A stretch of 64,000 bases of DNA from an uncultured archaeon (GCA_964592405.1 CAZQBY010000003.1:20329-84328), one strand, 5' to 3'. Positions 11,862 to 43,037 are shown, numbered from the stretch's first letter. Notes: generated by a model from the sequence alone, not told the origin. Program-made: numbers and translations.

Positions 11862-11879
11862 CAGCTCACCGACCTATGT

Positions 11880-12022
11880 GGGCCCGTAGGTTAGCCAGGA
11901 TATACTACGGGACTTCGGGAGCCCTTTTCTTCAAAAGAAAAGTGCTTCACCCCAAAAGAACGGGGTGCTGGGCAAACGGCTGGAGTCATCCCGTGACCCG
12001 GGTTCGAATCCCGGCGGGTCCG
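11880..12022 (+). tRNA. tRNA-Arg(UCG) with 69-nt intron (11919-11987) at 37/38
   Basis: Acceptor GGGCCCG/CGGGTCC; anticodon stem CGGGA/TCCCG with TCG at 11915-11917; T arm CCGGG TTCGAAT CCCGG; full BHB (CTTC/GGAG helix, bulges GG|G and TC|A, AGCC/GGCT); CCA not encoded. Confidence 0.93.
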
Positions 12023-12047
12023 TCTTACTGATGCTTAGCTGAGGCTC

Positions 12048-12120
12048 GACGGCCCCGCCTTATGTCGAGGTCATGTGCAGAGAGGATGTGTCCACCTCGC
12101 CATCCCGGTGGGTCCGTCCT
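12048..12120 (+). repeat. tRNA-trailer hairpin unit A (antisense and sense copy of the tRNA-Arg 3' end around a conserved core)
   Basis: 12102-12120 matches 12008-12026 at 17/19; 12048-12059 is 11/12 the reverse complement of the tRNA end; core shared with 38438-38495 and 30668-30711. Confidence 0.85.
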
Positions 12121-30362: not shown

Positions 30363-30529
30363 GCGGCCGTGGTGTAGTCTGGTATCACTCAAGCCTTCCA
30401 CGACCTTTTCTCGGAGAAAAGGTCGATCAAAAGAGGCCTTCGCCTCGTGAAGGCGCTTTCGGTCGACCGTGGACTAGAGACTGGGAGCGGAGTGAGCTTG
30501 GAACCCGGGTTCGAATCCCGGCGGCCGCA
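30363..30529 (+). tRNA. tRNA-Gly(UCC) with 94-nt intron (30401-30494) at 37/38
   Basis: Acceptor GCGGCCG/CGGCCGC; anticodon stem CAAGC/GCTTG with TCC at 30397-30399; T arm CCGGG TTCGAAT CCCGG; CTTC/GGAG central helix and TG|A bulge (relaxed BHB). Confidence 0.92.
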
Positions 30530-30554
30530 CCTTACTTTTTCTTGAGTTAACCTT

Positions 30555-30638
30555 GGTGCGGTCTTCGCTTCACTGCTCAAGAAAGCCATTGGGCGAAGCA
30601 TGCTTCTCGCATTCGCTCGAAGCGGCGGCCACACTTAC
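30555..30638 (+). repeat. tRNA-trailer hairpin unit C1
   Basis: GTGCGGTCTTCGCTTC (30556-30571) pairs with GAAGCGGCGGCCACAC (30619-30634); CGGCGGCCACAC-TTAC repeats the tRNA end CGGCGGCCGCACCTTAC 104 nt upstream. Confidence 0.75.
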
Positions 30639-30656
30639 ACATCATTATGGTGGCTC

Positions 30657-30723
30657 GTGCTGGCTGCTATGGCAGGAGCATCTGCCTAGAGGTGTATCCA
30701 CCCTGCCATCCAAACGACCGTGC
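30657..30723 (+). repeat. tRNA-trailer hairpin unit C2 (same core family as units A and B)
   Basis: Core 30668-30711 aligns to 12061-12105 at about 33/45; ATGGCAGG/CCTGCCAT perfect stem; decayed tRNA-end copies on both flanks. Confidence 0.7.
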
Positions 30724-30754
30724 TTCTTTTTCTTGATTCCCTCGTTATAGCTCC

Positions 30755-32116
30755 ATGAAGATAAGTTTTCTAGGAGCCTGCAGAATGGTTACCGGCTCCT
30801 GTTATCTCATTGAGACAAATGGGGAGAAGGTGCTGGTTGACTGTGGTATGTTTCAGGGTTCCAAAGAGGTTACCCGGCTTAATTATGAGGGTTTTGGATT
30901 CAACCCGGAAGAGATATCATATGTTTTTCTGACTCATGCACATATTGACCATTCCGGCCTGCTGCCAAAGCTCTATGCAGAAGGATTTTATGGCAGAATC
31001 GTTTCGACCGGGGCAACTGCCGATTTGTGCAAGATTATGCTGGAAGATGCAGCTGATATGCACGAGCACGGAACAGAGCATGAGAACCGCAGAAGAGAGG
31101 AAGAGGGTTTGCCACCAAGAAAGCCGCTCTACACTAAGAGAGATGCTAGGGGCGTCTGCAGGCAGTTTGACAGGGTCAACTACGATGAGACATATGAAGG
31201 TGGCTGTATTAGTGTGAGGTATTTTGATGCAGGCCACATACTGGGCTCGGCAATAATTGAGATGTCTGCAGAGGGCAAAAAGATTGTCTTTTCCGGCGAT
31301 ATTGGTCAGTGGGGCAGCCCAATAGTGAGAGATCCCACCCTGATAAGGGAGGCAGACTATTTGCTGATGGAGTCTACGTATGGAAATCGTCTCCATCAGG
31401 ATGTTTCTGAGAGGGCAAACCTGCTGGCAGAATATGCCCGAGAAACTTACAAAAGGGGGGGCAAACTGCTTATACCCTCATTCGCTGTAGAGAGGACACA
31501 GGAGCTACTTTACACAATAAAAAAACTAAAGGATGCCGGAGAGTTCCCACAGGAAGAAGTCTTTCTGGACAGCCCGCTGGCCATGAGAGCAACCAATGTT
31601 TTCGTCAAGCACAGGGAGTGCTATGACTGGGAGAGTCTGAGTTCTGACGATCCTATGGGATTGGATGAAATTCAGTACACAGGAAGTGTGGAGGCTTCCA
31701 AGAAGCTCAACCACTACAGCAAGCCGTGTATCATAATTGCTGGGAGCGGAATGTGTACGGGTGGTAGGATAAAACACCATCTCAAAAACAGTCTTTATGA
31801 CTCAAGAAATATGGTGCTGTTTGTAGGCTATCAGGCAGAAGGCACTCTGGGCCGAGTAATCCTCGAAGGAGCCAAGAGAGTCAGGCTCTTGGGTGTTGAG
31901 GTGGATGTCAATGCCGAGATTCGCAGTATAGATGGGTTCTCGGCTCATGCCGATAGGAACGGCCTGCTCACATGGGTCAAGGGATTCAAAAGAGCACCAA
32001 AAATCACTTTTATAGTCCATGGCGAACCAGATGCTGCAGAGGCATTGAAAGAGGGGCTTGAGAGGGGAGGTTTCTATTGCAGGATACCCTCAATGCTACA
32101 GACCATAAGGCTCTGA
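30755..32116 (+). CDS. beta-CASP metallo-beta-lactamase ribonuclease
   Basis: THAHIDH, AGHILGS, FSGD, ESTYG, FSAHAD, VHGE. Confidence 0.92.
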   Translation: MKISFLGACRMVTGSCYLIETNGEKVLVDCGMFQGSKEVTRLNYEGFGFNPEEISYVFLTHAHIDHSGLLPKLYAEGFYGRIVSTGATADLCKIMLEDAADMHEHGTEHENRRREEEGLPPRKPLYTKRDARGVCRQFDRVNYDETYEGGCISVRYFDAGHILGSAIIEMSAEGKKIVFSGDIGQWGSPIVRDPTLIREADYLLMESTYGNRLHQDVSERANLLAEYARETYKRGGKLLIPSFAVERTQELLYTIKKLKDAGEFPQEEVFLDSPLAMRATNVFVKHRECYDWESLSSDDPMGLDEIQYTGSVEASKKLNHYSKPCIIIAGSGMCTGGRIKHHLKNSLYDSRNMVLFVGYQAEGTLGRVILEGAKRVRLLGVEVDVNAEIRSIDGFSAHADRNGLLTWVKGFKRAPKITFIVHGEPDAAEALKEGLERGGFYCRIPSMLQTIRL

Positions 32117-38334: not shown

Positions 38335-38407
38335 GCGACCGTAGTCTAGCCTGGTATGACATCGGCTTGCCAAGCCGGTAGCCCGGGTTCAAATCCCGGC
38401 GGTCGCA
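38335..38407 (+). tRNA. tRNA-Gly(GCC), no intron
   Basis: Acceptor GCGACCG/CGGTCGC; anticodon GCC at 38369-38371 in TCGGC/GCCGG stem; T arm CCGGG TTCAAAT CCCGG; TTTTTAAG upstream at 38302. Confidence 0.95.
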
Positions 38408-38431
38408 CCTCGTTCTTCTTTCTGTAGGTTC

Positions 38432-38500
38432 AGTGCACCCGCCTTATGTCAAGGTCATTCGCAGAGAATTGGTGTCCGCCTCAACATCCTGGCGGCCGGA
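38432..38500 (+). repeat. tRNA-trailer hairpin unit B
   Basis: 38438-38495 matches 12054-12111 at 46/58 without gaps; 38486-38500 repeats the tRNA end 38393-38407 at 12/15. Confidence 0.85.
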
Positions 38501-38569
38501 TGTAGGTTTCTATGAGGTTGTGGAGACTGTGGGCTTTTATTCCCCTATGTTATAAAGGATTGGAGGAGA

Positions 38570-42920: not shown

Positions 42921-43037
42921 GACCAACGGCCATAGCGGGGTGGTCACACCTGGTCTCATCTCGAACCCAGAAGTTAAGAACCCCAGCGATCCGGCCGGTA
43001 CTGCGCAACGCGTGGGAAATCCGGGACGCTGTTGGTC
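42921..43037 (+). rRNA. rrf: 5S rRNA (stand-alone)
   Basis: Terminal stem GACCAACGGC/GCTGTTGGTC, CCATAGCG, TCTCGAACCCAGAAGTTAAG, GTACTG..GTGGGAA; TTTTTATA at 42893-42900. Confidence 0.95.

Follow-up and report, generated by a model that had tools for sequence, protein, structure and literature searches.

Stacked hairpin units with copies of the tRNA 3' end behind an archaeal tRNA-Gly(UCC) gene, most likely members of a tRNA-cognate cassette family

Introduction

Genes for tRNAs are classic landing sites of mobile DNA. The attC sites of integrons are imperfect palindromes of roughly 60-140 nt with unpaired bases, and their outermost arms repeat the sequence of the insertion point. Xer-dependent elements of the CTX type have a hairpin attachment site, which is folded from a single strand and mimics the target duplex. 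To our knowledge, no archaeal mobile DNA has been described that recognizes its site by a tRNA-templated principle.

Integrases of archaea often have tRNA genes as their targets. One plasmid family is reported to target 14 different tRNAs, target switching stays within the tRNA classes with or without an extra arm, and the attB may consist of no more than the acceptor end, or of the 5' half (PMC8371274). The model of Sugahara et al. 2012 links tRNA fragments and introns to integrase-borne elements (PMC3293823). Integrons in archaea are the subject of another report (10.1101/2022.02.06.479319).

Here, we analyze a locus at which two hairpin units, called C1 and C2, are stacked behind the gene for tRNA-Gly(UCC), and compare it with these systems. 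C1 and C2 are a pair from an undescribed family of tRNA-cognate hairpin cassettes of one vent-archaeal lineage. They most likely act at the DNA level and are related to recombination at attachment sites, a trailer RNA being a serious rival explanation. Searches of the full-text literature found no description of such tRNA-end units.

Results

The tRNA-Gly(UCC) gene and its downstream spacer

The window, by which we mean the whole stretch of 64,000 nucleotides that was analysed (G000:C3:20329-84328), belongs to a genome assembly of 1.13 Mb in 22 contigs that is 87% complete. This genome, G000, is archaeal, with many tRNAs containing long introns, an archaeal RNase P RNA and a splicing endonuclease. 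The public sequencing runs that contain G000 sequence come from metagenomes of hydrothermal vents and marine sites. The intron of tRNA-Gly(UCC) was estimated at about 94 nt by ARAGORN with introns and is located at about 30401-30494, after position 37/38. With default settings, ARAGORN misses two intron-bearing tRNA genes of the window, tRNA-Arg(TCG) and tRNA-Gly(UCC), both of which were recovered by the intron mode or by Rfam. A 5S rRNA gene is located at 42922-43037 of the window (Rfam 80 bits).

The spacer from tRNA-Gly(UCC) to the next gene, which encodes a beta-CASP RNase, is 225 nt long and contains both units (Table 1). The RNase gene is counted here as the downstream neighbour of the C1+C2 block; since its relatives are spread over bacteria and archaea, synteny based on this gene is uninformative. 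No family-supported ORF was found in 30530-30754, where the ORF listing gives one TTG ORF of 65 aa (30553-30750). In a search of the locus with Rfam 15, which includes tRNA-like elements and small ribozymes, only the tRNA scored, and the other matches had E>0.1 or covered the tRNA end. An 11-mer of the tRNA trailer (30535-30545) is repeated exactly behind C2, so that the two copies bracket the whole C1+C2 block. The 11-mer has only 3 further occurrences in G000 when both strands are considered.

Table 1. Features of the tRNA-Gly(UCC) locus and type-I units used for comparison, in window coordinates.
Feature	Position	Strand	Basis
tRNA-Gly(UCC)	30363..30529	+	Rfam tRNA 48 bits, 96-nt insertion; ARAGORN intron mode
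Pyrimidine-rich trailer, the C1 linker	30530..30554	+	T5 run; 11-mer 30535-30545; R2 alignment
Unit C1	30532-30635	+	Family alignment
C1 inverted copy	30555..30563	+	Reverse complement of acceptor 3' strand, discriminator and trailer
C1 core, second core type	30564..30622	+	Unmatched by type-I model
C1 direct copy of tRNA 3' end	30623..30634	+	11/12
Unit C2	30636-30723	+	Family alignment; R2
C2 linker and degenerate inverted copy	30636..30668	+	R2-aligned to linker and 5' arm of outer helix, several broken pairs
C2 core	30669..30709	+	Fold; alignments; type-a apical region
C2 diverged copy of tRNA positions about 59-73	30708..30723	+	10/16; family alignment
Exact repeat of the tRNA trailer 11-mer, end of C1+C2 block	30726..30736	+	
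Beta-CASP metallo-beta-lactamase RNase gene	30755..32116	+	Pfam Beta-Casp 1.4e-37, RMMBL 1.4e-20
Unit A, reference type-I unit behind tRNA-Arg(TCG) (11879-12024)	12026..12118	+	R2 81.8 bits, E 1.6e-20
Type-I unit behind tRNA-Gly(GCC) (38335-38409)	38410..38502	+	R2 54.6 bits, E 6e-13

A family of units behind tRNA genes

The same unit plan was observed behind many tRNA genes in G000 when the 150 nt following all 33 ARAGORN calls were listed. A unit is about 90 nt long. It begins with a linker, after which a conserved hairpin core lies between two copies of the tRNA 3' end, the first inverted and the second direct. The linker is pyrimidine-rich, with one or two short conserved words. The inverted copy corresponds to tRNA positions about 64-73 plus 2-3 bases of the trailer, and the direct copy to positions about 59-75. 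The units keep a register in which the inverted copy lies at +23..+25 and the direct copy at +72..+79. When the 3' 16-mer of each tRNA was searched within <=400 nt downstream, 17 recurrences were found at 11 of the 33 tRNAs of G000, as compared to 18 matches in 1006 non-cognate pairs of tRNA and downstream sequence.

Sixteen units, 12 from G000 and 4 from G002 and G007, were aligned. Their two-helix structure had 82.6% of its cells paired, as compared to 68.8% in shuffled sequences and 32-46% when the partner was slid. Double-sided changes were present in 16 of the 21 pairs overall, and in 8 of the 9 pairs of the inner helix.

Two models, which define the type-I unit family, were used for searches, both with E-values that come from short calibrations and are thus rough. 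R1 gave 14 significant matches in G000, all located in arrays behind tRNAs, 12 of these being rows on which it was trained. R2, a covariance model, was built solely from 36 units of other genomes, and the window was scanned with filters off. Unit A and the unit behind tRNA-Gly(GCC) were recovered (Table 1), and the best unrelated match after the units had an E-value of 0.72. A core of about 45 nt is common to units at >12 different tRNAs in 8 genomes. Further core types, distinguished by eye, are a Ser/Leu type behind class II tRNAs, those of His, Pro and Gln, and the C1 type.

Separately, in units behind tRNAs with a G3.U70 pair (tRNA-Arg(TCG) and both tRNA-Ala of G000), the inverted copy has a C facing the U, which is neither the G of the tRNA nor the complementary A. 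A pseudoknot between linker and loop was rejected, with a mean run of 4.17 within units versus 4.06 across units and 3.76 in shuffled sequences. Readings as a bulge-helix-bulge intron, a C/D or H/ACA guide, a K-turn or a primer-binding site were dropped on reading the sequences.

Units C1 and C2

An initial sequence-only reading of the locus had described two discrete, stacked units behind tRNA-Gly(UCC) that belong to a repeat family. The family comparison bore this out, and the observation of stacked tRNA-end hairpin units at this tRNA is confirmed. The borders first given had omitted the linkers and were redrawn from the family alignment (Table 1).

C1 lies directly behind the tRNA and contains a T-rich linker, an inverted tRNA-end copy, a core and, at its end, a direct tRNA-end copy, in the position and order of the type-I units. 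Its inverted copy lies about 24-27 nt behind the tRNA, near the register of +23..+25 at the other tRNAs, and matches the reverse complement of 30520-30531 at 9/12 positions (P 0.09 when taken alone). C1 had been described as carrying a different core and a well preserved tRNA-end copy, and both descriptions hold. The 12-mer at 30623-30634 matches the tRNA at 30519-30530 in 11/12 positions, a score equalled in 3 of 5000 dinucleotide shuffles of the spacer (P 0.0006, for a 12-mer window picked post hoc). A 16-mer that includes part of the T-stem has 6 mismatches and is not significant (P 0.29). R2 matched C1 at 30533-30574 with an E-value of 0.062, and 30533-30558 was aligned to the family linker. 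Only the linker and the start of the outer helix match this model, and the core of C1 is outside type I. The unit folds into one long hairpin of -33.2 kcal/mol (z -2.6, equalled by 5/200 shuffles). Cores of the C1 type were also found in relatives: a stretch of 34 nt (30595-30628) shares 94% identity with the second of the units behind tRNA-Arg(TCG) in G002, which bears Arg-specific ends, and a diverged unit of the C1 type is located behind a Gly-type end in G001.

C2 follows the end copy of C1, and both of its arms are degenerate. The similarity of C2 to the family, as measured against unrelated or shuffled sequence, was upheld for the core and not for the end copy. R2, which was built without the candidate, matched C2 at 30636-30722 with 19 bits and an E-value of 0.0048, the third match in the 64-kb window, which confirms the shared core and places C2 in the type-I family. 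The end copy matches at 10/16 positions in the alignment of the sequence-only reading, had 7 mismatches in a separate 16-mer test and was not significant alone; its status as an end copy follows from its position in the family alignment. Since the 16-mer copies of both C1 and C2 are unremarkable, the membership of C2 rests on R2. The inner helix is formed by 30669-30676 with 30702-30709 in 8 perfect pairs, as compared to 9 bp with one T x C mismatch in unit A. The model alignments reproduced the stem change from CGAG/CTCG in unit A to CAGG/CCTG in C2 as it had been described. The fold of C2 is unremarkable (z -1.1).

Distribution in relatives, metagenomes and viral contigs

Units were detected by R1 in 7 of the 7 other genomes of family f1, to which G000 belongs, with 3-16 units per genome, so that the main type is present in 8/8 genomes including G000. 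None were detected in the 33 genomes of five sister families. In the relatives, 24 of 26 arrays, as read by eye, begin right behind the T-arm and acceptor end of a tRNA. Directly behind tRNA-Gly(UCC), a core of type a, which is the C2-like class as sorted by eye, was found in G002 of the same genus, and also in G005 and G007 of another genus. Core identity including the loops is 75-87% across four genera, as compared to about 68% in neighbouring coding DNA.

Metagenome contigs contained the type-a pattern at 6 loci, all of which look chromosomal. A tRNA is located directly upstream at 4 of these, and the remaining 2 are short stretches in which no tRNA was found. Exact-pattern scans of viral contigs gave 0 matches for both the type-a pattern and a 21-mer of the C1 core. 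The scans of viral and metagenome contigs yielded no free copy of a unit, nor one on a virus or plasmid. A search for C1 and C2 elsewhere, which had been proposed as a check, gave no copy of >16 nt in G000 by blastn-short, in addition to the empty viral scan. As to polymorphism in unit number, another check that had been proposed, no variant was present at 29800-31300 in contigs of 4 DNA runs, which may include the source sample of G000. One metagenome contig of 1358 nt spans the tRNA, C1, C2 and the start of the gene without a difference.

Order of insertion and turnover

Sequential insertion, with the newest unit next to the tRNA, had been proposed. This fits the tRNA-Gly(UCC) locus but is not a general rule: in 11 two-unit arrays compared by eye, the distal copy was the worse one in 3, the proximal copy was worse by 1-2 bases in 3, and the two were equal in 5. 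At tRNA-Gly(UCC), the C1-type core is proximal to the tRNA in G000 only, and G007 has a different core in the proximal and type a in the distal position. C2 is the most diverged of the type-a cores, with a best identity of 0.74 versus about 0.8-0.87 for the others. This pattern fits a type-a unit that was resident early and was then displaced outward. The intact 11-mer bracket also allows the insertion or duplication of the C1+C2 block in one piece, and it equally allows C2 to be a later arrival at the end copy of C1. The bracket and the diverged tRNA-like part of C2 would fit a hybrid junction in a single inserted block of two hairpins. In four two-unit arrays from three relatives' genomes (L052, L053, L070 and L076), a type-b core is followed by a type-a core, as sorted by eye, an order that hints at a composite unit of two hairpins.

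Of 46 units, 10 had their nearest core neighbour within their own genome (6 expected), and 3 had a nearest neighbour with the same tRNA end. Judged from core identity, the cores group neither by genome nor by tRNA. Orthologous tRNAs of congeneric genomes bear different core types, and identical tandem copies as well as assembly gaps were observed behind Val, Ser and His tRNAs. Scaffold gaps are located behind tRNA-Val(TAC), Ser(GCT), His and Pro(TGG).

Pairing at the DNA or RNA level

In an RNA fold under selection, G.U is normally tolerated whereas A.C is not. In the helices, the numbers of G.U and A.C cells were 21/21 (A1), 35/31 (A2) and 9/9 (A2, inner helix). Of 43 units, 25 have an inverted copy with better complementarity to the end and trailer of the tRNA than to the end copy with which it would pair; the fit to the tRNA is worse in 3 units and equal in 15. 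The inverted copy thus tracks the tRNA rather than its partner, which indicates that each arm is derived from, or kept like, the tRNA without co-evolution.

These data bear on the proposal that the units are under selection for single-stranded structure. The covariation of the inner helix agrees with it, whereas the equality of G.U and A.C and the lack of co-evolution between the outer arms do not. Pairing therefore looks DNA-level or templated, and not like a classic selected RNA fold, and we infer that the units act as DNA. The covariation of the inner helix and the conservation of the core loops make a reading as wholly neutral sequence less likely. G000 has genes for RNase Z (G000:C2:44023-44919), RNase P RNA and the splicing endonuclease.

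Larger elements at the same tRNA segment

In family f1, the same tRNA segment is a live attachment site. Behind tRNA-Thr(GGT) in G003, there is an insert of 11 kb with a tyrosine integrase (Pfam 7.4e-20). Its bounding repeat of about 30 nt extends from the T-loop to 9 nt beyond the tRNA, and the insert has 7-nt iterons at both ends. A similar element is located behind tRNA-Ser(TGA) in G001. In G000 itself, a 780-bp element with a MazE antitoxin and a PemK/MazF toxin lies behind tRNA-Leu(TAG) (L197, G000:C14:21686-22465), with 7-nt iterons at both ends and a diverged tRNA-end copy on the far side. One metagenome locus (L190) has the order tRNA, unit, HicB/HicA element, type-a unit and the same element end again, showing that the end copies of units serve as insertion points for a larger element.

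Three features are common to gene-carrying elements and units: the beginning of the linker, words that resemble iterons and, at an equivalent position, a short inverted stretch. The cognate inverted stretch is only 6-8 nt in the gene-carrying elements, where it overlaps with a conserved motif that they have in common. The link between units and elements therefore rests on the layout, without clear homology, and a common descent of the two would be a reading of this layout and not a result.

With regard to an attR-type arrangement, a direct repeat of the tRNA 3' end was found to bracket the insert. No tyrosine recombinase (PF00589) was found in a six-frame search of G000 (E<=0.01; 87% complete), nor in G002, G005 and G007, all of which bear units. 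Integrases are present in the relatives G001 and G003. A XerA-like recombinase was observed in 1 of the 8 f1 genomes, all of which are incomplete assemblies.

Other enzymes were considered and rejected. No reverse transcriptase was found in G000, and Cas1 of the casposon or CRISPR type (PF01867) was present in 0/8 f1 genomes versus 10/33 genomes of the sister families. Y1 transposases (IS200/IS605, REP/RAYT) were detected in 4/8 f1 genomes versus 9/33 others, showing no phyletic link to the units, and TnpB-type nucleases gave only sub-threshold matches. The Y1_Tnp match in G000 is an IS200-type fragment only, with an in-frame stop, at the start of a contig (G000:C1:66-212).

Two further arrangements of tRNA parts were observed. 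Outside the window, tandem repeats with a period of 132 nt precede tRNA-Arg(GCG) and are broken by a scaffold gap (L048, G000:C3:108136-108560). Each repeat consists of the 5' leader and positions 1-19 of tRNA-Arg(GCG), followed by a module of 106 nt, the first 36 nt of which match the intron of tRNA-Gly(UCC) (window 30401-30436). These 5'-fragment repeats mirror the 3' units on the 5' side of a tRNA. On the reverse strand of a G001 contig (L079, G001:C16, about 1040-1425), about 250 nt of intron-like hairpins lie behind a promoter-like stretch and lead without a break into the final ~13 nt of tRNA-Gly(UCC) and then a C1-like unit; the 5' part of the tRNA is absent from the contig. This arrangement could represent a fragment of a tRNA, a split gene or an assembly error.

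Discussion

Explanations for the units

We tentatively favour, with slightly less than even confidence, the explanation that C1 and C2 are gene-less, non-autonomous insertion cassettes of about 90 bp at a tRNA 3'-end attachment site, and that they act as DNA. Such cassettes would be miniature relatives of the mobile elements whose attachment site in family f1 is the same tRNA segment. Recombination, with a putative recombinase supplied in trans, would insert or duplicate them either at the 3' end of the tRNA or at the end copy of a cassette already in place. The inverted copy may form a folded or cruciform site together with the tRNA end or an end copy. Tandem stacks would result, in which the end copies, being free of the selection that acts on the tRNA, would drift. 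C2, with its type-a core, would have been the old resident at tRNA-Gly(UCC), and the C1-type cassette would have been added later beside the tRNA in the lineage of G000. In favour of this explanation are the confinement of the units to tRNA ends and to family f1, the larger mobile elements at the same segment, the DNA-like statistics of the helices, the turnover of the cores, and the known use of tRNA genes by archaeal integrases. Against it stand the failure to find a tyrosine recombinase in four unit-bearing genomes, a reverse transcriptase in G000, Cas1 in the family or a Y1 transposase that follows the units, the lack of free copies and of unit-number variants in the contigs scanned, and the link to the gene-carrying elements by layout only. 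In addition, for a cassette to move from one tRNA to another, its inverted copy must be re-made for each target, and we know of no recombinase that does this. The conservation of the cores across genera could equally mean a function as RNA or in protein binding.

A function as RNA leads to the main rival explanation, a serious one that we consider possible if rather unlikely: a structured 3' trailer RNA that is co-transcribed with the tRNA, the helix of which mimics the acceptor/T-stem stack and is cut by RNase Z, and perhaps RNase P, like a t-element. In a variant of this explanation, the inverted copy pairs with the 3' end and trailer of the pre-tRNA and modulates its maturation; the arrays would grow by unequal crossing-over between the repeated ends. 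Consistent with a trailer RNA, the units are always on the tRNA strand and start at the tRNA end, the loops are conserved across four genera, and both helices are supported by the excess of paired cells (82.6% versus 68.8%) and by the 16/21 double changes. The inverted copy also stays complementary to the tRNA end and trailer, as is needed for a cis antisense, RNase Z, RNase P RNA and the splicing endonuclease are at hand, and 4/8 f1 genomes have no detected recombinase. However, G.U is not above A.C and the outer helix shows no compensatory co-evolution. In several units, the one next to tRNA-Gly(UCC) among them, the stretch that separates the tRNA from the hairpin contains T4-T6 runs, which are the common terminator signal in archaea. 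Within a genus, core types are exchanged among orthologous tRNAs, the units have no match in Rfam, and the sister families, which have the same processing enzymes, carry no units.

A third, distinctly unlikely explanation is an integron-like platform on tRNA 3' ends, in which both gene-less hairpin cassettes and small toxin-antitoxin elements would be captured at any tRNA via a folded recombination site, with one arm templated on the 3' strand of the target tRNA or kept matched to it.

We find it improbable that the units are a neutral by-product of tandem duplication and template switching at heavily transcribed tRNA genes, with neither function nor mobility, the arms being kept matched by quasi-palindrome correction. 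Such an origin would agree with the equality of G.U and A.C, the independent resemblance of both arms to the tRNA, the identical tandem copies and the failure to find a candidate enzyme, but it leaves unexplained the conserved core of about 45 nt at >12 tRNAs in 8 genomes, the fixed length and register (+72..+79 and +23..+25) and the conserved words of the linker.

Chance similarity in a terminator-rich spacer, which would accommodate the non-significant C2 end copy and 16-mer tests and the z of -1.1 for the C2 fold, has a negligible probability. Against it stand the 12-mer copy of C1 (P 0.0006) and the homologous units behind the same tRNA in G002, G005 and G007, and it is refuted for practical purposes by the match of the independent model R2 to C2 (E about 0.005), the strongly positive genome-wide test of cognate versus non-cognate pairs, and the limitation of R1 matches to family f1.

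Significance

In an entire family of vent archaea, a large share of the tRNAs is accompanied by uniform, conserved mini-cassettes, each of which is matched to the tRNA beside it. If the cassettes are mobile, they would represent a new and very small kind of site-specific element, with a target matching for which no enzyme is known. An integron-like platform, if true, would make the target programmable without a change in enzyme specificity, and units acting as RNA would form a new class of cognate tRNA-trailer structure. Either way, the units account for gaps in the assemblies and for odd "tRNA fragments" of these genomes. They are also relevant to the origin of tRNA introns and split tRNAs, as the same hairpin modules are present in introns, leaders and trailers.

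Comparison with known systems

The layout of a direct copy, a short loop, an inverted copy, the element body and another direct copy is shared with the CTX-type elements that depend on Xer. This likeness concerns the layout, the units here giving no sign of a single-stranded stage. They differ from the CTX type in that they are tiny, their target is a tRNA end and not dif, and neither Xer nor another recombinase was found in G000.

Like t-elements, the units have a helix that copies the acceptor end beside a stable RNA gene, in a genome with RNase Z. Unlike t-elements, they have neither a T-loop nor a tRNA-like score, and their helix continues through the discriminator. They are also cognate to the adjacent tRNA, are organized in arrays and show a fast turnover.

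Integron arrays are similar in that cassettes are stacked at one fixed site and include toxin-antitoxin cassettes. In contrast to integrons, the anchor here is the tRNA 3' end, the arms are tRNA-specific, most cassettes are empty, and the units have no core sites of the RYYYAAC / GTTRRRY type. No integrase of the IntI type was found, and G000 gave no match to PF00589.

The archaeal integrase-borne elements are alike in that a direct repeat of the tRNA 3' end brackets the insert (PMC8371274, PMC3293823), the intact tRNA remains on the promoter side and inserts stack at one tRNA. Class II tRNAs (Ser, Leu) have a core type of their own in the genomes analysed here, and tRNA-Arg(GCG) has 5'-fragment repeats. 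The units differ from the integrase-borne elements by their small size of about 90 bp, their lack of genes, their uniform length and their conserved hairpin core. Each unit bears, in addition, an inverted copy of the cognate tRNA end, and units are located at a large share of the tRNAs in every f1 genome, even in those in which no integrase was found.
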